DNA from: Ignavibacteriota bacterium
GTDB taxonomy: Bacteria > Bacteroidota > Ignavibacteria > UBA10030
Reading direction: 5' to 3'
NCBI GenBank assembly: GCA_963701295.1
Contig: OY969585.1
Coordinates: forward strand, 1,472,001-1,536,000
Length of the DNA: 64,000 bases
Shown: positions 4,939 to 19,256 of the stretch, piece by piece
How the letters are laid out: each line of letters starts with the position of its first letter
Position numbering within the stretch: the first letter of the stretch is position 1
Position numbers and translations under genes: made by a program
The notes under the pieces: model-generated
Database searches by the model: none
What the model was told of the DNA's origin: nothing
Seen by the model: the letters and a program-made list of their open reading frames with translations, nothing else

Positions 4939-5646
4939 ATGAAATATATCGTATTCTTGTTTTTCCTGCCAGCTTGTCTTTTCGGACAAGCTCGTTCGCC
5001 TGTAAAACTATACAAGATCGAAGATTCTGTCTGGGTGCACACCACGTACAAATTGTACAATAATATCAATCTGCCTGCGAATGGATTGATCATCCAGACA
5101 TCGGCTGGATTGGTATTGATTGACACTCCGTGGGATGATTCACTGACGACTGAACTGCTCGATTCAACAAAGAAGCGATTCAATCAAGATGTTGTTTTAG
5201 CAATCGTTACTCATGCGCACGAAGACCGAATCGGAGGTATCCGCACGCTTCATAAGAAAGGAATAAAAGTTGTCAGTATTGCCCTTACGTGTCAGAAAGC
5301 AAAAGAGCTTGGGTATGAAGTTCCGGAGCCGGTCTTCTCAACAGATACAACATTTATTTTTGGAAACGAACAGATTGAGTATTTCTATCCCGGTGCAGGG
5401 CATACGATTGATAACAGCGTTGTTTGGTTTCCAGAAAGAAAAATTCTCTTTGGGGGATGTTTGGTGAAATCTGCATCCTCAACCAATCTCGGCAATATTG
5501 CAGATGCCGATCTCAAAGAGTGGCCTCGGTCCATTCATACCTTGATGGAAAAATTCCCCACAATTCATGTGATTGTACCCGGTCATGGTGAATGGGGAAA
5601 CTATACGCTACTGCAACACACATTAGATCTGCTGTCGATGCACTAA
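4939..5646 (+). CDS. Subclass B1 metallo-beta-lactamase with signal peptide
   Basis: PANGL, LIDTPW, THAHEDRIGG (H116/H118/D120), GHTIDN (H196), FGGCLVK (C221/K224), LGN (N233), PGHG (H263). Confidence 0.9.
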   Translation: MKYIVFLFFLPACLFGQARSPVKLYKIEDSVWVHTTYKLYNNINLPANGLIIQTSAGLVLIDTPWDDSLTTELLDSTKKRFNQDVVLAIVTHAHEDRIGGIRTLHKKGIKVVSIALTCQKAKELGYEVPEPVFSTDTTFIFGNEQIEYFYPGAGHTIDNSVVWFPERKILFGGCLVKSASSTNLGNIADADLKEWPRSIHTLMEKFPTIHVIVPGHGEWGNYTLLQHTLDLLSMH

Positions 5647-5786
5647 GTAAATTCTTGTTCTCATTGAACAAGTACTTTCCCTTCGCTGGTAATCCACACT
5701 CACTGAATAATCATCTTTTTCCTTCCTTGCTGTAGTATTCTATACGCTCATTTATGAGAGAAAAACCGGATTTTTAGAAGGAATAA

Positions 5787-5827
5787 GCTACGGAACATTC
5801 CGTAGCAATCTACGGAACATACCGTAG
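5787..5827. promoter_or_regulatory. Two tandem palindromic boxes (CTACGG-N6-CCGTAG) upstream of the pilin-like gene
   Basis: gctacggaa-ca-ttccgtagc (5787-5806) and ctacgg-aacata-ccgtag (5810-5827), 22 bp apart. Confidence 0.65.
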
Positions 5828-5945
5828 GTTGAAAAATACTGGAATCACCCGATGTAATTCAAATGGTGCTGGAGTATCTTAATACCAGTTAGAATAAGTT
5901 AAAATTAACTCAACGATATACTAACAATCTTTAAAGGAGATACAA

Positions 5946-6431
5946 ATGAAAAAGCTTCTTTTAGTCGCCGTCTTATTGATGGTTGTCGCTGTTGCGTCGT
6001 ATGCGCAAGTACAGACTGCAAATATAACAGCAAATGTTAATGCAACTGTGACATTGGCAAAACTTACTGATCTGGCAACCCTTACTGCAAATCAAGGGCA
6101 GACAGTATCCTTTGCATCAAACACTGCGAACGCTGCATCATTTTTAATGACAGGAGCAGCACTTGCTTCAACAACAGTAGTCGTTGCATTTCCTGCAACA
6201 TTGTCTGATGCTGCCTTAAACACTATGACATTTACCGGACAAATCCCGCGAACAAATATTGTAGCTGGCGCTGCGACATCTACAGCATTAGCTGCGCTAA
6301 CCGGCGGGACCGCAACCACATCTGCTGGTGGTCAATTGTGGATATATGCTGGCGGCGGCGTAACAGCAGCTGCAGCACAACCGGCGGGACAATATACCGG
6401 CGTAGTTACAGTTACAGTTTCACAGCCGTAA
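5946..6431 (+). CDS. Secreted DUF4402-like / fimbrial subunit-like protein (putative major pilin)
   Basis: Sec signal peptide, Ala/Thr-rich all-beta pattern, C-terminal QPAGQYTGVVTVTV motif, strong AAGGAG RBS. Confidence 0.7.
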   Translation: MKKLLLVAVLLMVVAVASYAQVQTANITANVNATVTLAKLTDLATLTANQGQTVSFASNTANAASFLMTGAALASTTVVVAFPATLSDAALNTMTFTGQIPRTNIVAGAATSTALAALTGGTATTSAGGQLWIYAGGGVTAAAAQPAGQYTGVVTVTVSQP

Positions 6432-6456
6432 CGCAAACTTCAATACGCAGAATAAC

Positions 6457-6491
6457 AAAAGCTCGGTTGCCGAAAAGGCGGCTGAGCTTTT
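6457..6491 (+). terminator. Strong stem-loop after the first pilin-like gene
   Basis: aaaagctcggttgcc-gaaaa-ggcggctgagctttt. Confidence 0.7.
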
Positions 6492-6554
6492 GCGTTTTAA
6501 GTTTCTTGGAAGTATCTTAAATGCAATGAAGACTTCAAATTCGGTACGATCAAC

Positions 6555-7043
6555 GTGAATACCAGAATGATACTACTCTGCGCATGGGTACTGGCATTGT
6601 TCAGGATAGGAATTATCCCGACTGAAATGTTTGCACAGGATGGATTGACTGCTGTTAAACGCAGCGATCTGAGCATCGGCAATATCAATATCGGTCAATC
6701 GCTGCGCATTCTTCCTCAGAGTCCGGCAGCGGCAAAGTTTGAAATACGAAGCACATCCGAAACGGATATCTTCATACAAATTGTCCTTCCGGATCATTTA
6801 CAGGAGATTGGCGGGAAAAGCGAATTGGGTGTCACGTTTAGTACGGATTGTGCGCGATGGTCGCTGAACGATAATGTAGAAAACTCAACGTCGTTCGATC
6901 CACATTCTCCTCTCCGTGTACATTTAGGAAAAAACCAATCGGTGATTATCTGGCTTGGAGCATTTGTCGCTCCCCCGTCGAATCTCCAGGCCGGGCATTA
7001 TATATCGTCTATTACTCTCACAACAACTTCGGTGGCGAAATGA
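6555..7043 (+). CDS. Second DUF4402-like subunit (putative minor pilin)
   Basis: Signal peptide, DLSIGNI, AAKFEI, IWLGA, C-terminal LQAGHYISSITLT, parallel to the first subunit. Confidence 0.65.
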   Translation: MNTRMILLCAWVLALFRIGIIPTEMFAQDGLTAVKRSDLSIGNINIGQSLRILPQSPAAAKFEIRSTSETDIFIQIVLPDHLQEIGGKSELGVTFSTDCARWSLNDNVENSTSFDPHSPLRVHLGKNQSVIIWLGAFVAPPSNLQAGHYISSITLTTTSVAK

Positions 7044-7870
7044 AATATCAAATTCTTTTTTCTTTCTTTATCCCTTCTGTTCTGATTTCATTGAACGTTG
7101 TTGATGCGCAGGTCACTGTTGCGCCGCCGGTTGTTTTCATGAGTCCGGAGAATCGTTTCGATGTGCTGATGCTTGAGAATCGAACGTCCAACACACAGGA
7201 AGTGTCTGTGGAATTTAAATTTGGTTATCCGACCTCAGATTCACTTGGAGTTGTTGCCATGCAATATGCGGATTCGAGCGCAGAGCGGCAGTATTCTATC
7301 GCATCGTGGTTAAAAGCATTTCCAAAAAGATTTGTGCTTGTTCCCGGGGAACAGCAATCGGTGCGTCTTGCATTGATGGCGCCGCCGTCGCTTGCCGATG
7401 GTATATACTGGACACGCATTGTCACCACTGGTGCGCCTCAGCAAAAATTTGTGGATACAGTGCGGGCAGGTATCGTTACCCAGCTCAATTATGTATTTCA
7501 ACAAGTCACAACTGCTGCATTTGTCAAAGGAAAGATTGTTTCACAGCTTGCCATACAAGGAAAGGGTGTTCAACGTGATACCTCTGGAATTGCAATTCTC
7601 TGGTATGTCAACCGAACGGGAAATGCTCCGTACTTCGGCACTGCCGTAACGAAGATATTCAACCAGAGCGGCGATCTTGTTGATGAGATAAAAGAAACAT
7701 TGGCAATTTACTTTTCCATGATGAAGCGTTCACTCTTTTCCATTGCCAAAGTGAAACCGGGTTCGTACTCTGTCGAGGTATCGCTTCTCCCGGAGCGTAC
7801 TGACATTCCACATGATCAATTAAAACATTTCGATTCATTTTCACAGCGGTTCAATGTAACCATTCCGTAG
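7040..7870 (+). CDS. Putative periplasmic pilus chaperone (PapD-like fold)
   Basis: Signal peptide, VTVAPPVVF, PKRFVLVPGEQQSVRL, DGIYWTRI, second domain NRTGNA; ATGA overlap with upstream gene. Confidence 0.7.
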   Translation: MKYQILFSFFIPSVLISLNVVDAQVTVAPPVVFMSPENRFDVLMLENRTSNTQEVSVEFKFGYPTSDSLGVVAMQYADSSAERQYSIASWLKAFPKRFVLVPGEQQSVRLALMAPPSLADGIYWTRIVTTGAPQQKFVDTVRAGIVTQLNYVFQQVTTAAFVKGKIVSQLAIQGKGVQRDTSGIAILWYVNRTGNAPYFGTAVTKIFNQSGDLVDEIKETLAIYFSMMKRSLFSIAKVKPGSYSVEVSLLPERTDIPHDQLKHFDSFSQRFNVTIP

Positions 7871-7888
7871 AGACGGGGCAGCGAACCG

Positions 7889-10486
7889 ATGTATTTCCTG
7901 AAAACCGGGTTCGTACTATTGATTGCTTCAATTCTTTTTTCTCCATTCGCACAACCGCAGCAAGTATCATCGACTACTCCTGAGGAAGTATTTCTTCTCT
8001 TTCGTTATCAGCAGGGGAATGTGAATGAGATTGTTGTTGCCCAATATTTGAATGGAACTGTCTACCTGCCGTTTGGTGATTTATTTCACCTTCTGCAGAT
8101 CAATTATGCAGTTGACAGCGGAATGACCCGTATAACAGGTTTCTACCTTACTCAGCAGCGGCAATATGATTTAGATACTAAGAAGCTTCTTGCTCGCATC
8201 GATAATAAGGCAGTAGTACTACGGGAAGGAGAAATATCAAAAACTGATCTTGAGATCTATACACTGCCTTCTGTCTTTGAGAAAATATTCGGATTGAGAT
8301 TCACTGTAGATCTTCGCCATTTACAATTATCGCTGGAAACGGATGAAGTTCTACCTGTCGTAGCAGAACAAGAGCGTGAACAGCGAAAACAGATGTTGAA
8401 TGCTCTCAAGCAAGGACAAAAAGATTATCCATTGTTGTATGGACGTAGTCGCAGCATGTTTCGTGCAGGTGTGCTCGATTATTCGTTGACCGGGACACGC
8501 GAAAACGGATCGACGTCCTCAATGTATAATTTTGAAGGAGGCGCAGAAGTGTTCGATGGTGAATTGAACGCATCGATAAATGGAGCCCACGATCAGAATG
8601 GCTGGGGCAATGCGCAGCATGATCTCCATTGGCGCTATGCGTTCGATGAAAGGAAAGAGATCACACAGGCATCGGTCGGAAACTTACAAGGATTCGGAAT
8701 AACACAATCTCCATTCACCGGTGTCAGCGTCTCGAACGAACCGCTTGTGCCAAGGACGATGTATCAGACGATGGTCGTGGAAGAGCAAACTCAACCATAT
8801 TGGATGGTAGAGCTCTATCTCAACGAGCAGCTTACCGCTTCGGCACGTGCCGACGAGATGGGACGGGTTCGTTTTGAAATTCCGTTGACATATGGCACAA
8901 ACGTATTTTCTTTGCGGATGTATGGACCTTCAGGAGAAGTGCTGACAGAACGGAAACGTATTCAAGTGCCGTTCACATTCCTTCCATCGCATGAACTCAA
9001 TTATTCGATTAATGCCGGCAGACTACAAATCGGAGGGTTTCCACTCTATCAAGCGCAAGCAATCTATGGCTTGAGCAATGTCCTCACGAATCGAATTTCT
9101 CTTGAATATCTCCGCGATACACTGCGTCAGAGACCTGTGTTGACCGATGTCGTTTCAGCTCGCGTCGGCGAGAGTATGCTGCTTGCGTTCGAGGCATCTC
9201 CAACTGTCCGCTACCAAGCAAATATGGAAGTAATGTACCCGTCACAAATTTCGTACGATGTCACATACACCAAATTCGAGCCTGATCTGCTATACAATCC
9301 TTTGGCACAACGACATGCAATCCAGGCTGATGCTACAATCCCCTTTGAAGCCAATCAGGTTCATTATGTGCTTCGCAGCACGGTGAACCGGACAGATCTT
9401 GTTCATGGTTCAAATTTGTATTGGACAATCGGTGCATCGGTGTCGCATGGTCCGTTTATGGAATCTTTGGAAGAAAGATATTCTGAACTTGATGACGGAC
9501 AGGGAGGGATTTCGAGGAAACCAGCCCTCTATGCATCGGTGTTGTATACTGTACACCAGTTTGATGGACTGCCATTGGATATTAATTCATTTCTTCTCGG
9601 TGCAACAGCAACGTACGATCAATCTTCCAGACAGATAAGCGAGGTCACGTGCGATATTTCTGCAAATATTTTCAAGCAAGGACGTTTTCGCATCGGGTAC
9701 CAAAAGGATCTTTTATTGAAAACCACAACCGGCTTCCTCGAGCTTACATTCGATTTTGATTTTACCCGTTCGTCAACGTCGCTGTATACCGGAAACCGAA
9801 ATGCATTCAGCCAATCGGTAAGCGGTGCGTTGGTTTACGCAAGCGATGAGAATATACTTTCAGTCTATGGCAGGCAATGGAACGATAATACCGGTGCGAA
9901 CTTCCGCATGTTTCTCGATGAAAATGGAAATGACAAGTACGATGAGGGGGAAAAAATAATTGAAGGCGCTTCTGTCAGTATTGGGCAGTCTGCATCATAT
10001 CAGAAAAGCAGCGGTGGATTAGTGAAGGTCTGGGAACTGTTGCCATATGCACGCTATCAAGCAGAATTGCTTGATATTTCAATGGCAAATAGTCTTTGGA
10101 TTCCGAAACATAGGTTATTTGCATTTATCACCGATCCACACCGAGCGAAAACCATGGATGTTCCGTTTACGGCTGTCGGTATGATCGAAGGTACTGTTCT
10201 TCGTATACGAAAGGAAGAGAAAGTCCCGGTTCCGGGATTGAAAGTCCAAGTGGTCGAAGTAGGAGGAGCACTGAAGAAAACAATCTCTTTGTTCCAAGAT
10301 GGGTCGCTGTATTATGTCGGCTTGGCACCAGGGAAGTATATAATTTCCGTAGATTCGGTACAGCTCGTCATGCTAGGATTGATTGCAAAACCGATGATGC
10401 GTGAATTCATTATTAAAGCAACTGCTGAAGGGGATGCTGTCAGTGGATTAGATTTTATTCTTGTCGAATCAGATAACAAGAAATAG
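7889..10486 (+). CDS. Putative outer-membrane usher-like protein with C-terminal Ig/CnaB-like domains
   Basis: 865 aa; signal peptide; plug-like VELYLNEQL...IPLTYGTNVF...GPSGE; amphipathic beta strands; FLDENGNDKYDEGE; GLAPGKY; follows the chaperone. Confidence 0.7.
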   Translation: MYFLKTGFVLLIASILFSPFAQPQQVSSTTPEEVFLLFRYQQGNVNEIVVAQYLNGTVYLPFGDLFHLLQINYAVDSGMTRITGFYLTQQRQYDLDTKKLLARIDNKAVVLREGEISKTDLEIYTLPSVFEKIFGLRFTVDLRHLQLSLETDEVLPVVAEQEREQRKQMLNALKQGQKDYPLLYGRSRSMFRAGVLDYSLTGTRENGSTSSMYNFEGGAEVFDGELNASINGAHDQNGWGNAQHDLHWRYAFDERKEITQASVGNLQGFGITQSPFTGVSVSNEPLVPRTMYQTMVVEEQTQPYWMVELYLNEQLTASARADEMGRVRFEIPLTYGTNVFSLRMYGPSGEVLTERKRIQVPFTFLPSHELNYSINAGRLQIGGFPLYQAQAIYGLSNVLTNRISLEYLRDTLRQRPVLTDVVSARVGESMLLAFEASPTVRYQANMEVMYPSQISYDVTYTKFEPDLLYNPLAQRHAIQADATIPFEANQVHYVLRSTVNRTDLVHGSNLYWTIGASVSHGPFMESLEERYSELDDGQGGISRKPALYASVLYTVHQFDGLPLDINSFLLGATATYDQSSRQISEVTCDISANIFKQGRFRIGYQKDLLLKTTTGFLELTFDFDFTRSSTSLYTGNRNAFSQSVSGALVYASDENILSVYGRQWNDNTGANFRMFLDENGNDKYDEGEKIIEGASVSIGQSASYQKSSGGLVKVWELLPYARYQAELLDISMANSLWIPKHRLFAFITDPHRAKTMDVPFTAVGMIEGTVLRIRKEEKVPVPGLKVQVVEVGGALKKTISLFQDGSLYYVGLAPGKYIISVDSVQLVMLGLIAKPMMREFIIKATAEGDAVSGLDFILVESDNKK

Positions 10487-10576
10487 ACCTTAAGAGGTGC
10501 TGCTTCTATCGAATGCTCGAAGTTTGTAGATATTTCAATATCTTCTTTCACATCGTCATTCCTTTAAATCAGTTAT

Positions 10577-10609
10577 TGACAAAAACCCAAAGAAATGGGG
10601 CTTTTGTCA
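10577..10609. promoter_or_regulatory. Inverted repeat (terminator or activator site) between usher and small secreted gene
   Basis: tgacaaaa...ttttgtca with inner ccca/tggg. Confidence 0.4.
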
Positions 10610-10641
10610 GCCGGTCCAAGCCACTTTAAGAGATTTTGAAC

Positions 10642-10656
10642 TGGAATATCCTTTGC
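10642..10656 (+). promoter_or_regulatory. Candidate sigma-54 (-24/-12) promoter
   Basis: TGGAAT-ATCCT-TTGC with exact GG-N10-GC spacing, 24 nt upstream of ATG 10681. Confidence 0.45.
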
Positions 10657-10680
10657 GACATCTTCTCATAGCAAAACGCT

Positions 10681-11034
10681 ATGAGAAGACTCTGCACCAT
10701 ATTAACACTAAGCACACTGTTGATGCTTATTATTCCTTGTTCGCTTACCGCGCAGCACCAGGCTCATTCTTCGGCGAATATAACGGTAACAGTTCTGCCG
10801 GCGGTTGGTGTGGAAGTGCAGGAACGAATCTCTTCATCGCACGAAAAGGGAAATATTCAATCTGAATTTCTTGTAAAAGTGAATGACTCAGGAAAGTATT
10901 CCCTCCGAATTCTTGACGAATCAAATACATCATCCACACTTTCGAAAGTGCTCGATGCAAATAGTGTCTACCGTCTCCAGGGAAGAAAATTAAGCTCGAA
11001 GAAGATTGTCCAAGTCGCTCTTCTCAGCAGTTAG
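10681..11034 (+). CDS. Small secreted protein, possibly pilus-associated
   Basis: Signal peptide followed by SSANITVTVLP, resembling the N-terminus TANITANV of the 5946 subunit. Confidence 0.5.
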   Translation: MRRLCTILTLSTLLMLIIPCSLTAQHQAHSSANITVTVLPAVGVEVQERISSSHEKGNIQSEFLVKVNDSGKYSLRILDESNTSSTLSKVLDANSVYRLQGRKLSSKKIVQVALLSS

Positions 11035-11367
11035 CGGTTCCTTCCCGCATTTTGTTGGTCATCATAATCTTGTTGAGTAATTCACTAAAGAATTCATTTC
11101 TATATCTTCAACTGATGTACATTCAAGGGCAGATTTGCACGGAATAGCGTTGACATGAAGCAATCGAAAATGTCCATACTCACGTATGGATATCCTTCGC
11201 ACTCAGTCTTCTTTTTTCTTGCTATAAGAAGCCGCACACTATCATCGTTAATGCCTATTTATAGATATTTGGTGCAATAATTTGTAACTTAAGTTGAAAA
11301 TAGCATCACCTAATATTATCATTATTTTTTCCTTTGAAAGGATTCAATTGAACAAGAAGAGTGATGG

Positions 11368-14709: not shown

Positions 14710-17700
14710 TTATTTCGTCAACATCATTTTTCTGATTTGTACTTTTCCTTCAGCTTTCAATCTCGCATAATACATTCCACTCGCAAGATTATTCGCATTG
14801 AAGGTCACAGTGTGATGTCCTGCTTGTTGTACTTGATTCACAAGCGTTACAATTTCTTTACCTAGGATGTCGTAAACGATCAACCGTACTTCAGCAGTTG
14901 TGCTTAGTTGATAACCAATCTCTGTTGAAGGATTGAACGGGTTTGGGAAATTCTGTTCCAGCAAGAAGCCGCTCGGTACTTGCACAGTTGATTCTACAGA
15001 TGTGGTTAATGATTCATAAACACCGAGTTCGAAAAATGAAATACCCAATTGAGTACCGCGTTGAATACCGATCAAACGCACATACCGTGCATTAACGGGA
15101 TCAAAATTTAATTCTATAGTATCCGGTCCAGAAGCATATCCAGTTACTACATCAGTAAAGATTAGACCATCCAACGATGTACTAATCGTAAATTGAGAGG
15201 CGTATGAACTATCCCATGTGATAGTGATATGGTCGATAGTTGTTATATCCTGAAGATCGACCTGCCACCATTGATTATCTGTATACGCAGAACTCCAGCG
15301 AGTGGTTGGATTTCCGTCATTTGCTTTATTTGCTTCGTCTCCTGTCAGTTCAACGGTGGAAGCAGTGCTTGGCATATCGAGCGCTTTATTTCGAGATAAT
15401 TTTTGTGGCCTTACATAGACTTTTTTTACGTATGAAGTATTTCCATTGATATTAGATAATATCAAAGTAAATCGAGTCGTAGCTCTTATAATTCTCGTAA
15501 TAGATCCATTTGTAACGACCGTTCCGATCCCATTATTGATAGAAGCAGAAGAAGCATTGGAAGAAGTCCAGGTGAGTGTGACAGAACCACCGCGTTCTGG
15601 GAGTGTATCAGATGATGCGATGAATGTTCCAGTGGGTGGAGGCAAGTCTGATAATCCATTTCCACTCACAAACACACTTTTTGTCACTGCGCCCCCTCCA
15701 CCAATTGTGATGGAATCTGAGTATGATTGCACAGTCGTTGGAGAAAACCTCACATAGATTATTTTCGGTATAGGTTGGAGTGTTCCGCTTGTATATGCTA
15801 TTCTTTTTGATGAAGTAAAGCCTGAGCTACTATCAGTTGATATTGTAAATCCCGATGGCGCTGTAATGGTAAGTGAGTCAGATGCAGGCGATAAATTCAA
15901 TCCCACTAACGTATAAGTCAGTTCACTTGATATCGTATTGATGGTAACATTTCCGAATGATAAAGATGTCGGGTTTACCGTCAGCGCGGATGCCGTAGCA
16001 GAGATGCCTGTTCCGGTCACTGCGACATTCTGTGTTGTTGCACCGCCTCCTGCATTCGTGATATTGCCAGTATAACTCTGCACTGCCGTCGGAGAGAACC
16101 TAACATAGATTGTTTTCGCAGAAAGTGTTCCACCTGTATATGCTATTCTTTTTGATGAAGTAAAGCCTGAGCTACTATCAGTTGATATTGTAAATCCCGA
16201 TGGTGCTGTAATGGTAAGTGAGTCAGCTGCAGGCGACAAGTTCAATCCCGTTAACGTATAAGTCAGCTTACTTGATATCATATTGATGGTAACATTCCCA
16301 AATGATAAAGATGTCGGGTTTACCGTCAGAGCAGGTGTTGGTGCACTAATACCGCTACCGGTTACCGCAACATTCTGTGTTGTTGCACCGCCACCTGCAT
16401 TTGTGATATTGCCAGTATAACTCTGCACTGCCGTCGGAGAGAACCTAACATAGATTGTTTTCGCAGAAAGTGTTCCGCCTGTATATGCTATTCTTTTTGA
16501 TGAAGTAAAGCCTGAGCTACTATCAGTTGATATTGTAAATCCCGATGGCGCTGTAATGGTAAGTGAGTCAGATGCAGGCGATAAATTCAATCCCACTAAC
16601 GTATAAGTCAGTTCACTTGATATCGTATTGATGGTAACATTTCCGAATGATAAAGATGTCGGGTTTACCGTCAGCGCGGATGCCGTAGCAGAGATGCCTG
16701 TTCCGGTCACTGCGACATTCTGTGTTGTTGCACCGCCTCCTGCATTCGTGATATTGCCAGTATAACTCTGCACTGCCGTCGGAGAGAACCTAACATAGAT
16801 TGTTTTCGCAGAAAGTGTTCCACCTGTATATGCTATTCTTTTTGATGAAGTAAAGCCTGAGCTACTATCAGTTGATATTGTAAATCCCGATGGTGCTGTA
16901 ATGGTAAGTGAGTCAGCTGCAGGCGACAAGTTCAATCCCGTTAACGTATAAGTCAGCTTACTTGATATCATATTGATGGTAACATTCCCAAATGATAAAG
17001 ATGTCGGGTTTACCGTCAGAGCAGGTGTTGGTGCACTAATACCGCTACCGGTTACCGCAACATTCTGTGTTGTTGCACCGCCACCTGCATTTGTGATATT
17101 GCCAGTATAACTCTGCACTGCCGTCGGAGAGAACCTAACATAGATTGTTTTCGCAGAAAGTGTTCCGCCTGTATATGCTATTCTTTTTGATGAAGTAAAG
17201 CCTGAGCTACTATCAGTTGATATTGTAAATCCCGATGGCGCTGTAATGGTAAGTGAGTCAGATGCCGGCGATAAATTTGAGCCTTGCACGGTATATGTTT
17301 TTTTGCTCGAAATCGTATTCACGATTACATTGCCAAAAGAAAAGGATGATGGAGTGATTGTCAATGTTCCTGTTGGTGAACTTGCATCCGAATTCCATAC
17401 TGATCCCGATTCGAGTCCTGTCGCTGCTTGGAATGCTGATAATGACGTGTAAAATACTTCATTAGGATACGGCGTTGCATTAAACCGTCCCGGACTATGG
17501 AAGCTATTATTTATGGATGTTAAGCCAGTAGTAGCATCAAATTTATCCAAGTTAGAATTCGATTGCTGTCCGGTAACATCGTTATGTTCAAATAATATTG
17601 TAGCAGAAGTGCCGAAAACAGATTCAACGCCTTGTCCTGTCGCAAAACAGTTTATCGTATTATTGTAAATATGGTCTTGACCTGTTCCACCTAATTGTTC

Positions 17701-18900
17701 TACTGTTCCTGCTTTACAAAGAGTGACACTTATCGCGGGGCCAATATCACCACCCGTGATGATATTATTATTATGGGCTACCCACTGTTCCCCGTGCAGA
17801 TAAATTCCACCTTGCATCCCGATGAAAGTGCAATATCGAACAGTGTCTCCTAAATTTAAATACGTATCAACACCCGAATCAATCACATTCTCCACAAGGC
17901 AATGATCTGCACCACAAGCATTGTCGGATTCAAAACCTAATCCGCACTGTTCTCCACCTTGTGAGATTCCTAACACGCCGTCCATCTCATGATTTACTGT
18001 GTCATATTTAAACCAGTTGCGCGAACCAAAATAATTATAGATACAAGTCCTGCTTGTTGAATCACAATAACACGAATCAATAAGACAATCATGGGTGCCG
18101 GTGGAAAGGAACATGGCTTCATTCATACAATTCAACGTCTTGATATGCCGCCAAATCAAATGGTCGCCCGTGAGAGCTTTCAGTGCCGTCCGGTAATTTC
18201 TAAACTCTAAGTTCTGTACGGTGACGTAACTTCCATCTGCAAAACTACCCTCTCGGAAGATGTGTAGTTGTCCTGGTGCATTGCTGTCATTTGTCCTTAC
18301 CCATATTGTGTCTGAACCGCCAGCACCTGGGCCATAGCTTGAAGCCACAAAGCTATCCAGAAATTTCCTTAGGCTATCGGCATTGGACAAATAAAACTGA
18401 ATCTCTCCCTCTTGATGTGTCATTTGCTGCCACGCGCCTGAATAATACTCATATCCATACGTCTCCACCGTGCGTCCGCACCACGTTTTGTAATAACCAA
18501 CTCGCCCGGGAACGGCTGTCCATGTATGAAATGACATATCTCCATAGATTATCGGTTTCCCACCTGTGCCATACGCATCTATCACTATACGATTAGATGA
18601 TGTTCCTGTGAATGTTTGAGATATCTCTCCTTCAAAAACGTCTCCCCGTTTAAGCAAAATATGATCCCCCGCATTGAAACTTGACCGCGATATTTTGGTC
18701 AATGTTTGCCACGGAGTCGTTGTGGATGTCCCATTGTTCCCATCATTCCCACTCGATGAACTAACGTAATACGTCGTCTGAGCTAAAAGTGCGACGGGAA
18801 GAATCAACATCAAAAAAAGTAAGCTGATCATTCTTGCCTTTGCAACAGTTGCCAAAGTCTGAGAAAGGATGGTTGAAAAAACCGTTCGTTGAGTTTTCAT
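14710..18900 (-). CDS. Large T9SS-secreted protein: parallel beta-helix, five Ig-like (choice-of-anchor D/ASH-like) repeats, F5/8 type C domain, CTD
   Basis: TTYYVSSSSGNDGNNGTS...PWQT...GDHILLKRGD beta-helix start; PTSLSFGNV repeats; ANDGNPTTRWSS...WWQVDL; QNFPNPFNPST tail. ATG 18900 has an AAGGAG RBS. Confidence 0.85.
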   Translation of the reverse strand: MKTQRTVFSTILSQTLATVAKARMISLLFLMLILPVALLAQTTYYVSSSSGNDGNNGTSTTTPWQTLTKISRSSFNAGDHILLKRGDVFEGEISQTFTGTSSNRIVIDAYGTGGKPIIYGDMSFHTWTAVPGRVGYYKTWCGRTVETYGYEYYSGAWQQMTHQEGEIQFYLSNADSLRKFLDSFVASSYGPGAGGSDTIWVRTNDSNAPGQLHIFREGSFADGSYVTVQNLEFRNYRTALKALTGDHLIWRHIKTLNCMNEAMFLSTGTHDCLIDSCYCDSTSRTCIYNYFGSRNWFKYDTVNHEMDGVLGISQGGEQCGLGFESDNACGADHCLVENVIDSGVDTYLNLGDTVRYCTFIGMQGGIYLHGEQWVAHNNNIITGGDIGPAISVTLCKAGTVEQLGGTGQDHIYNNTINCFATGQGVESVFGTSATILFEHNDVTGQQSNSNLDKFDATTGLTSINNSFHSPGRFNATPYPNEVFYTSLSAFQAATGLESGSVWNSDASSPTGTLTITPSSFSFGNVIVNTISSKKTYTVQGSNLSPASDSLTITAPSGFTISTDSSSGFTSSKRIAYTGGTLSAKTIYVRFSPTAVQSYTGNITNAGGGATTQNVAVTGSGISAPTPALTVNPTSLSFGNVTINMISSKLTYTLTGLNLSPAADSLTITAPSGFTISTDSSSGFTSSKRIAYTGGTLSAKTIYVRFSPTAVQSYTGNITNAGGGATTQNVAVTGTGISATASALTVNPTSLSFGNVTINTISSELTYTLVGLNLSPASDSLTITAPSGFTISTDSSSGFTSSKRIAYTGGTLSAKTIYVRFSPTAVQSYTGNITNAGGGATTQNVAVTGSGISAPTPALTVNPTSLSFGNVTINMISSKLTYTLTGLNLSPAADSLTITAPSGFTISTDSSSGFTSSKRIAYTGGTLSAKTIYVRFSPTAVQSYTGNITNAGGGATTQNVAVTGTGISATASALTVNPTSLSFGNVTINTISSELTYTLVGLNLSPASDSLTITAPSGFTISTDSSSGFTSSKRIAYTSGTLQPIPKIIYVRFSPTTVQSYSDSITIGGGGAVTKSVFVSGNGLSDLPPPTGTFIASSDTLPERGGSVTLTWTSSNASSASINNGIGTVVTNGSITRIIRATTRFTLILSNINGNTSYVKKVYVRPQKLSRNKALDMPSTASTVELTGDEANKANDGNPTTRWSSAYTDNQWWQVDLQDITTIDHITITWDSSYASQFTISTSLDGLIFTDVVTGYASGPDTIELNFDPVNARYVRLIGIQRGTQLGISFFELGVYESLTTSVESTVQVPSGFLLEQNFPNPFNPSTEIGYQLSTTAEVRLIVYDILGKEIVTLVNQVQQAGHHTVTFNANNLASGMYYARLKAEGKVQIRKMMLTK
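15650..17375 (-). repeat. Five intragenic 345-bp (115-aa) tandem repeats with a near-identical 690-bp super-period
   Basis: ttctttttgatgaagtaaag recurs at 15801, 16146, 16491, 16836 and 17181. Confidence 0.95.
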
Positions 18901-19256
18901 GTTATTCACTCCTTTGGTTTGCTACAATGTTCTTTACATGCGCGTTGCATGCATCAAGCGGAGTTCCATGAAAAGTAAAGCGAGTGAAAACGCTCAAAAT
19001 TGATGAAAAACGGATAAAACTGTTGGTCTAAAGGAAAAAGAAGTGAAGGTAGGAAAACGCTGATTGTAGAAAGGTAAAAAAAACTTACAAAGGATAGGAT
19101 AAGGTTGAGTCTGAACTCTTTAAATGTATGGTTATGGAAGAAGTGAGGTGAGAAATCGGTATTGAGAAAGCCTTTCGGATATAAAGAAGTTGCTATCTGA
19201 CGTAATTCATTTTATAGTATTTCAAAACAAGTAAATCACAAGTGCATTTTAGTGTT

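Follow-up and report, generated by a model that had tools for sequence, protein, structure and literature searches.

A predicted non-classical chaperone-usher fibre locus in an Ignavibacteriota bacterium and its likely link to type IX secretion cargo

Overview

A stretch of 64,000 nucleotides from the genome of an Ignavibacteriota bacterium (assembly GCA_963701295.1, contig OY969585.1, positions 1,472,001 to 1,536,000 of the forward strand; hereafter the window) carries five co-oriented plus-strand open reading frames (ORFs) within 5946-11034, as the initial annotation had described. They are predicted to encode two small secreted subunits (P0001 and P0002), a periplasmic chaperone (P0003), an outer-membrane usher (P0004) and a mini-subunit (P0005). 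[quoted passage not shown] That the P0001-P0005 system has the general structural make-up of chaperone-usher systems is largely supported on predicted models. The literature search, with subscription journals mostly outside its scope and supplements unread, returned nothing on DUF4402 or PF14352, the family around which the locus had been said to be built, and for ushers or pili in Ignavibacteria it gave unrelated titles only; otherwise, too, no title or opening of an abstract pointed to this system, which does not prove absence from print.

The usher

P0004 (865 amino acids (aa), 7889..10486, plus strand) had been suggested to form a plugged usher-type barrel; this was checked, and the structural model and the fold searches agree with it. 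The model, built with 44 aligned homologs, reaches a predicted local distance difference test (pLDDT) score of 87, and its DSSP strand list places six strands of the barrel at 191-282, the plug with its six strands at 291-360 and 18 further barrel strands at 370-651, so that the barrel (191-651) counts 24 strands with the plug between strands 6 and 7. Ushers are described in the same terms, as 24 strands and a plug (PMC13721041). Two C-terminal sandwich domains follow (666-860), and the predicted N-terminal domain (about 30-175) is confidently folded and barely covered by the fold searches. In the Foldseek search the first 17 matches listed are all FimD or PapC, with E values from 1e-26 to 5e-9 (FimD best, 1.3e-26). 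By VIA, P0004 compares with FimD at Z 20.4 (614 aligned residues, root-mean-square deviation (rmsd) 8.4) and with the PapC pore at Z 16.7 (354 aligned, rmsd 3.7), at 10-13% sequence identity to FimD/PapC. The top four rows of an unbiased search of 48161 chains are again PapC and FimD (Z 16.3-18.6), the next unrelated barrel standing at 12.8, and a weak sequence alignment to FimD covers the barrel start and the plug (E 0.0015). Pfam Usher matches four of the 44 homologs, with a best E of 2e-14. Existing annotation misses the usher because the families label P0004 by its last domain only (SdrD_B/CarboxypepD_reg).

Among the usher homologs (P0012-P0050) a C-terminal SPOR fusion was found in 14 of 44 and an OmpA fusion in one; P0004 has neither. 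These fusions suggest that some ushers of the family may be tethered to peptidoglycan.

The chaperone and its predicted complex with the major pilin

P0003 (276 aa, 7040..7870, plus strand) contains the PGEQQSVRL motif noted earlier, has no Cys, and its mature form probably starts at Q24. Its complex with P0001 was predicted with a score of 0.88 in three runs, the best of three controls giving 0.00; the mark applied to this score is reached by 116 of 157 solved pairs and by 2 of 215 mismatched pairs, and a pass may stem from likeness to solved chaperone-pilin complexes. The runs share at least 87% of their contacts, with a partner pLDDT of at least 87. In the predicted complex the putative G1 donor strand of the chaperone (about 142-157) runs along the last strand of P0001, and residues 150-156 pair parallel and in step with residues 153-159 of the subunit. 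The predicted interface comprises 24-30, 126, 142-157, 217-222 and 253-256 on the chaperone side, residues outside these being uncertain, and includes 32-39 on the subunit side. The pairing is thus predicted to be donor-strand complementation.

Residues P95 and R126 are invariant in 151 of 151 chaperones. P95 aligns with Pro60 of EcpB, to which domain 1 of P0003 is weakly alignable (E 0.0015, Pro60 included), and this proline of strand D1 is described as the sole residue invariant across chaperone-usher chaperones (PMC4654587). In the same source Arg89 in strand F1 of non-classical chaperones is said to anchor the C-terminus of the subunit. The 60 chaperones of the collected loci fall into two subfamilies, GEYRSH and YWTR: the former has Arg at the position of Arg89, whereas the latter, to which P0003 belongs, has Trp in that column (134/151) and the invariant Arg (R126) two residues further on. 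The correspondence depends on the alignment: hhalign equates W124 with EcpB Arg89, and MAFFT pairs R126 with it at the cost of a two-residue gap. Y224, conserved in 139 of 151, aligns loosely with EcpB Tyr169 (the domain-2 helpers in CsuC being Tyr196 and Arg174); the predicted interface lists 217-222 and 253-256. No Arg or Lys occurs in residues 24-38, so the classical N-terminal Arg anchor (Arg8 of PapD) has no counterpart there.

No Pfam, NCBIfam or PDB sequence match was found for P0003, and PapD_N matched one of 29 chaperone homologs (E 0.019). Among 1.84 billion representatives the chaperone profile hits 416 clusters at E 1e-30 and, at the looser limit of E <= 0.001, 2380. The atlas search led to an unnamed cluster of 1164 members, in which Gemmatimonadota are commonest.

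The subunits

The major pilin P0001 (161 aa, 5946..6431, plus strand) has a signal peptide, a predicted donor strand (about 21-35) and an incomplete immunoglobulin (Ig) fold. In its model (pLDDT 91) residues 21-35 remain unpaired, and in the complex prediction a chaperone strand completes the subunit; the expectation of incomplete subunit folds thus held for P0001 at the level of the models. In the Foldseek search the first ten rows are all chaperone-usher pilins (CsuA/B, CfaB and FimF/FimG complexes), the best being CsuA/B (7zl4, E 2.1e-3), with CfaB at ranks 2-6 and E values of 2e-3 to 5e-3 in the top rows. Against DUF4402 P0001 scores 23.9 bits, just below the cut-off of 25.2, and P0002 reaches this family only indirectly, through a profile built from relatives of gene 1 (E 3e-11). 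Both proteins of about 160 aa end in a G-x-Y-x-G/S strand; the direct match to DUF4402 holds for gene 1 only. The SCPU family (PF05229) gave no row at E <= 1 for P0001, P0002 or P0005.

The composition of P0001 is 47% Ala, Thr and Gly. Cysteine is absent from it, from 34 of 40 aligned pilins over the last 135 residues and from 108 of 147 pilin-like ORFs over the last 125. The fibre had been called disulfide-free, which stands for P0001, but the novelty was overstated, since the alternative-pathway pilin EcpA also has no Cys.

P0002 (162 aa, GTG start, 6555..7043, plus strand; Cys at positions 9 and 99) lacks the donor strand. In all 14 aligned members of its family the segment that carries this strand in three aligned donor-bearing pilins is missing, and the first core strand starts right behind the signal peptide. 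Such a subunit could accept a strand but could not donate one, and by the logic of chaperone-usher pili P0002 is therefore likely a single-domain tip, or initiator.

P0005 (117 aa, 10681..11034, plus strand) has a signal peptide, a pilin-like donor strand and a short beta domain ending LLSS/YLSS. An alignment of 18 family members, encoded behind the usher, shows a body about 50 residues shorter than that of the pilins, and the N-terminus matches the pilin profile (hhalign probability 76, E 2e-5) over the signal peptide and donor strand only. The atlas search with the mini-subunit gave only matches under 0.9. The gene is intact in 17 of 32 loci, two copies look broken, and four loci had less than 60 bp of downstream DNA, with nothing readable there. 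FimI-type termination, described for classical pili (PMC12122975), offers a model: a protein that donates a strand but has a shortened body would suit termination or anchoring, and it may be guessed by this analogy that P0005 is one of these or a length regulator.

Four of the gene families are under purifying selection in relatives; the ratio of nonsynonymous to synonymous substitution rates (dN/dS) is 0.15-0.23 for the P0002 family (six pairs of relatives) and 0.16-0.42 for the mini-subunit (seven pairs).

Locus layout and genomic context

The features listed at first for gene 1 were all found: a strong ribosome-binding site (AAAGGAG, 5 nt 5' of the ATG), no Cys, and a stable hairpin 3' of the gene. 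This hairpin (6456..6492, plus strand) has 16 pairs and a T tail, with a fold z of -3.5 and none of 200 shuffles as good; it is likely an attenuator or terminator that sets a high ratio of pilin to machinery. A hairpin ahead of the mini-subunit gene is no better than its shuffles (z -0.4), and the sigma-70 promoter scan stayed at chance level. The cassette has a GC content of 44-47% compared to 42% in the genome. The genome, in one contig and 99% complete, has no paralogous pilus locus elsewhere. It does bear a T9SS, as claimed: SprA and PorV are present, and YPNPF-type C-terminal motifs occur in 82 of 2941 called ORFs. None of P0001-P0005 carries Por_Secre_tail, while a positive control at 14710-18909 scores E 1e-9.

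In the RNA run X1 (share 0.06) the contigs come from relatives, mostly less than 95% alike, and 5985-6418 is left uncovered, so no expression is shown. One contig of this run joins 5695 to 11244, with a short side of 35 letters only.

Several neighbouring features of the window may be recorded. At 4939-5646 (plus strand), directly 5' of the pilus promoter, lies an intact gene for a metallo-beta-lactamase of subclass B1 (NF033088, 285 bits against a cut-off of 200); it stands at the same site in G008, is a broken remnant in G001 and is absent at the site in G003, G007 and G013. The control just mentioned (14710-18909, minus strand) is a T9SS cargo protein of 1399 aa; it contains choice-of-anchor D repeats, five in number, together with an F5/8 type C domain and internal repeats that are almost identical. 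An imperfect palindrome of 52 nt (11265-11316) lies in the gap that divides the cassette from the ferredoxin gene.

Operator and regulation

Upstream of the major pilin gene two TACG-N8-CGTA palindromes, 22 bp apart, form a tandem operator (5788..5827, no strand assigned; repeats D9/I6), which is predicted to bind a response regulator of the NarL/LuxR type. The site geometry, TACGGAA-nn-TTCCGTA, is a 7-2-7 inverted repeat, the layout given for NarL sites (PMC9314961). The host genome holds 35 single sites and four exact tandem pairs, where about 0.001 would be expected; all four are intergenic by inspection, and the other three precede secreted T9SS-tail genes (1179 aa; split, 218 + 678 aa; 878 aa). 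A fifth, looser pair lies between the gene of a NarL-type regulator (receiver + GerE; G000 2148018-2148689) and a receiver-only gene, the regulator gene being preceded by that of a PAS/GAF/HisKA_3 kinase. The exact tandem recurs in four of 15 other genomes of the genus, always at a pilin promoter, including promoters that are otherwise dissimilar, and in five of 61 genomes of the family, compared to one of 61 for the reversed-pattern control. The three family hits outside the genus each lie immediately after this same pair of kinase and regulator and precede receiver-only genes, in two cases also an adhesin-like gene. An exact site 5' of the first pilin was found in six of 57 loci as against 0.4% of 3000 random windows. 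It is likely, judging from these sequence patterns, that the pilus and the T9SS cargo are co-regulated by a NarL-type two-component system in this lineage, though not in general.

Two regions that carry the operator show further features. In L110 (2631-11036; G000 ~1653630-1662000) three paralogous T9SS adhesin-like genes follow one another, and the last two of them are split (218 + 678 aa; 346 + 182 aa) by a frameshift or an assembly error. In L112 (4192-8826; G000 ~2145200-2149800) the kinase, NarL-type regulator, operator and receiver-only gene are followed by a frame of 149 aa with a receiver-like start and an adhesin-like end, which resembles what might be left of the series of two receivers and an adhesin that G335 and G338 contain.

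Distribution and exchange of the cassette

Whether the genes keep together in other genomes was also checked, and the families are linked elsewhere: all 32 loci from a species-genome scan hold the subunit, chaperone and usher families together, two of them with the usher before the chaperone. The titles of these loci include Ignavibacteriota, Bacteroidota, Kryptoniota and Balneolales, and the nearest relatives that bear a title are metagenome-assembled genomes under the labels Ignavibacteriae, Ignavibacteriales or Bacteroidota. Of 301 genomes sampled in the phylum, 65 contain DUF4402. Twenty further loci picked by hand, 19 from this sample and one other, hold the chaperone in 19 cases, the usher in 18 and both in 17, and the three misses reach a contig or fetch edge. 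Usher matches were also found in seven plasmid records, and in the three that were inspected (Polaromonas, Pseudoalteromonas, Sphingopyxis) one or more small genes, a chaperone-sized gene and an usher follow in this order, with DUF4402 labels in two; one proteobacterial chaperone is already labelled 'fimbria/pilus periplasmic chaperone'. With copies in alpha-, beta- and gamma-Proteobacteria the clade is thus not limited to the Fibrobacteres-Chlorobi-Bacteroidetes (FCB) group. The earlier idea of a divergent chaperone-usher fibre in an FCB or Ignavibacteria-like T9SS host holds at the level of prediction, but its emphasis on FCB was too strong.

The Polaromonas plasmid cluster (L113, 936-8539) has an IS6 transposase gene on either side and a LuxR-type regulator behind it, which suggests that it may be mobile. 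Two loci (L029, 6926-12987; L092, 8961-11899) have two chaperone paralogs each, like the E. coli ecp operon.

In the host the cassette is inserted between a DUF1015 gene and a ferredoxin/oxoacid oxidoreductase operon. The same site holds a related three-pilin cassette in opposite orientation in G001 and G009 (also L011). In G004 and G010 it is taken by a cassette of the GEYRSH type, which has large additional genes but a promoter 83-85% identical; G008 has the beta-lactamase gene only, and G003, G007 and G013 have nothing there. The locus would therefore be a swappable cassette at one chromosomal site, exchanged by recombination in the shared flanks. An invertible switch or a transposon is unsupported, as no significant terminal repeats were found flanking the cassette. 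Very large frames occur inside GEYRSH-type cassettes of same-genus genomes (L098, 8992-16941; L080, 5219-11002; L093, 1-8580); the one scanned, in L098, has PATR, fn3, G8 and T9SS-tail domains.

Comparison with known pilus systems

Among the closest known systems, archaic (sigma) pili such as Csu of Acinetobacter baumannii (CsuA/B, CsuC, CsuD, CsuE) and CupE of Pseudomonas aeruginosa share the pilin-chaperone-usher operon, environmental hosts, an N-terminal donor strand, a pilin that is the best Foldseek row for P0001, and a chaperone that has the invariant Pro and, subject to the alignment, a strand-F1 Arg that is conserved. CsuA/B has a conserved disulfide, Cys16-Cys62, described for archaic pilins (PMC4654587, PMC10104325), whereas P0001 has neither this bond nor a match to SCPU. 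The single-domain donor-less tip predicted here also differs from the two-domain CsuE, P0003 carries Trp at the Arg column of its sister subfamily with the invariant Arg two residues on, and the mini-subunit gene is extra.

Alternative (alpha) systems of E. coli (ECP, EcpA-E; CFA/I, CfaA-E) resemble the locus in the Cys-free major pilin EcpA, the CfaB rows, the weak alignment of EcpB to chaperone domain 1 and a similarly alternating N-terminal strand (E 0.004). The C2-D2' disulfide reported for alternative chaperones (PMC4133393, PMC4654587) is lacking in P0003 because it has no Cys; no two-domain tip of the EcpD/CfaE type is present, and no similarity of the usher to EcpC was detected.

With the classical type 1 (FimD/FimC/FimA/FimI) and P pili (PapC/PapD) the locus shares the 24-strand usher with its plug and C-terminal domains, and the parallel pairing of G1 with the F strand, here predicted. 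It departs from them in its low usher identity, in a chaperone with no N-terminal Arg anchor and no FimC match, and in the SPOR and OmpA fusions of its usher family. Subunits of type V pili (FimA/Mfa1 of Bacteroidia) are lipoprotein precursors that are matured by a protease and need no usher. P0001, although from the same broad phylum, has no lipobox Cys and travels with a chaperone and an usher. Type V pili polymerise by strand exchange as well (PMC4789730). As the defining features of archaic, alternative and classical systems are each lacking in part, the system is best filed as a non-classical branch of its own.

Proposed mechanism

The subunits would enter the periplasm by means of their signal peptides, and there the chaperone is predicted to lend its G1 strand, with I145, T147, L149, Y151 and F153 alternating, parallel to the last strand of the subunit, whose C-terminus would be held by the invariant R126 and by R253/D255 of domain 2. 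Displacement of the plug would open the usher barrel. By comparison with FimD/PapC and Csu, the usher would take the donor-less P0002 first, as tip, and then many copies of P0001, each of which would insert its N-terminal strand into the preceding subunit; the strong ribosome-binding site and the hairpin may provide the excess of major pilin. The weakest step, and a doubtful one, is the end of growth: the 117-aa P0005 might terminate or anchor the fibre by donating a strand while offering no normal acceptor groove. The response regulator probably binds the tandem operator and co-activates pilus and T9SS cargo as one attachment programme.

Points against the proposal and alternative explanations

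Several results speak against this proposal. P0001 has no Foldseek row with E <= 0.001, and by VIA its Z values with CsuA/B and CfaE (7.1-7.2) are tied with those of unrelated Ig folds, so that the pilin fold matches are supportive and not decisive. At the sequence level the usher profile has no detectable similarity to the single EcpC sequence compared (probability 0.5%), the chaperone gave no match to FimC, and PDB sequence searches with P0004, P0003 and three profiles matched no chaperone-usher protein. On the side of regulation, the three T9SS-cargo promoters, among five with the operator, share extended homology and thus count as one origin; 51 of 57 pilin loci are without the exact site; the host has eight GerE-type matches; and the regulator is present in 15 of 16 genomes of the genus, with an exact site behind it in four of 15 only.

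Two other uses of the same machine are each improbable, at roughly equal odds. Instead of a long pilus its product might be a short fibrillum, or else a capsule-like polyadhesin of amorphous form, with the major subunit as the adhesin and P0002 only a cap, as Caf1/F1 and Afa/Dr form such structures. A locus with no two-domain tip adhesin and a single Ala/Thr/Gly-rich major subunit would suit this, as would the faster divergence of major pilins than of their neighbours in some pairs (L008/L009, dN 0.28 vs 0.02 for the chaperone), but the closest fold rows are pilins of Csu and CFA/I, which are true pili, and relatives carry subunits of 300-370 aa, of two-domain size, ahead of the chaperone. The fibre might instead be a stalk or scaffold that displays T9SS-exported adhesin-like proteins in place of the usual tip adhesin. 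The operator common to three T9SS-cargo promoters and the single-domain tip point in this direction, together with the large PATR/fn3/T9SS-tail frames that lie between chaperone and usher inside the cassette of G004 (same genus) and the genes of 1700-2200 aa ahead of the pilins in several other loci. In the present cassette, however, there is no gene for T9SS cargo; the proteobacterial versions lack one and are complete all the same, and co-regulation needs no contact.

That the cassette is decaying or silent and no fibre is made in this host is still less probable. Its absence at the site in same-genus G003, G007, G008 and G013, the split ushers of L001, L011 and L100 and the split mini-subunits of L007, L019 and L080 would agree with decay; here, in contrast, all five frames are intact with ribosome-binding site, hairpin and both operator sites, and dN/dS in relatives is well below 1. 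Finally, that P0004 is another plugged barrel (a TonB-dependent receptor or porin) among unrelated secreted Ig-fold proteins is barely credible: Pfam and NCBIfam do assign no chaperone-usher family to the usher and chaperone of the window, but PapC and FimD lead the 48161-chain search by 3.5-6 Z units over other barrels, and the place of the plug between strands 6 and 7, the C-terminal sandwiches and the predicted chaperone-subunit complex all agree with an usher.

Significance

Two sources (PMC4654587, PMC10104325) locate pili of the chaperone-usher kind in Proteobacteria, Cyanobacteria and Deinococcus-Thermus. Given DUF4402 in 65 of 301 genomes and both chaperone and usher at 17 of the 20 loci, a large group of Bacteroidota may have an overlooked organelle. 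A bolder thought, for which only low odds can be given, is that DUF4402 marks an unrecognised non-classical chaperone-usher branch common in Bacteroidota, with a Trp/Arg-shifted anchor of its own, a mini terminator that donates a strand and, in many cases, an usher that binds peptidoglycan, and that the fibre of Ignavibacteria-like hosts belongs, as one arm, to an attachment programme under two-component control and physically carries T9SS-exported adhesins; if true, one pilus would be built by two secretion systems.

DUF4402 gains a testable function, and the five-gene system is small enough to be rebuilt in the laboratory, where it would probe how far the chemistry by which chaperones anchor subunits can vary. 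A specific regulator-operator prediction ties the pili to T9SS cargo, and soil, sediment and other Bacteroidota may carry an adhesion organelle that has been overlooked.

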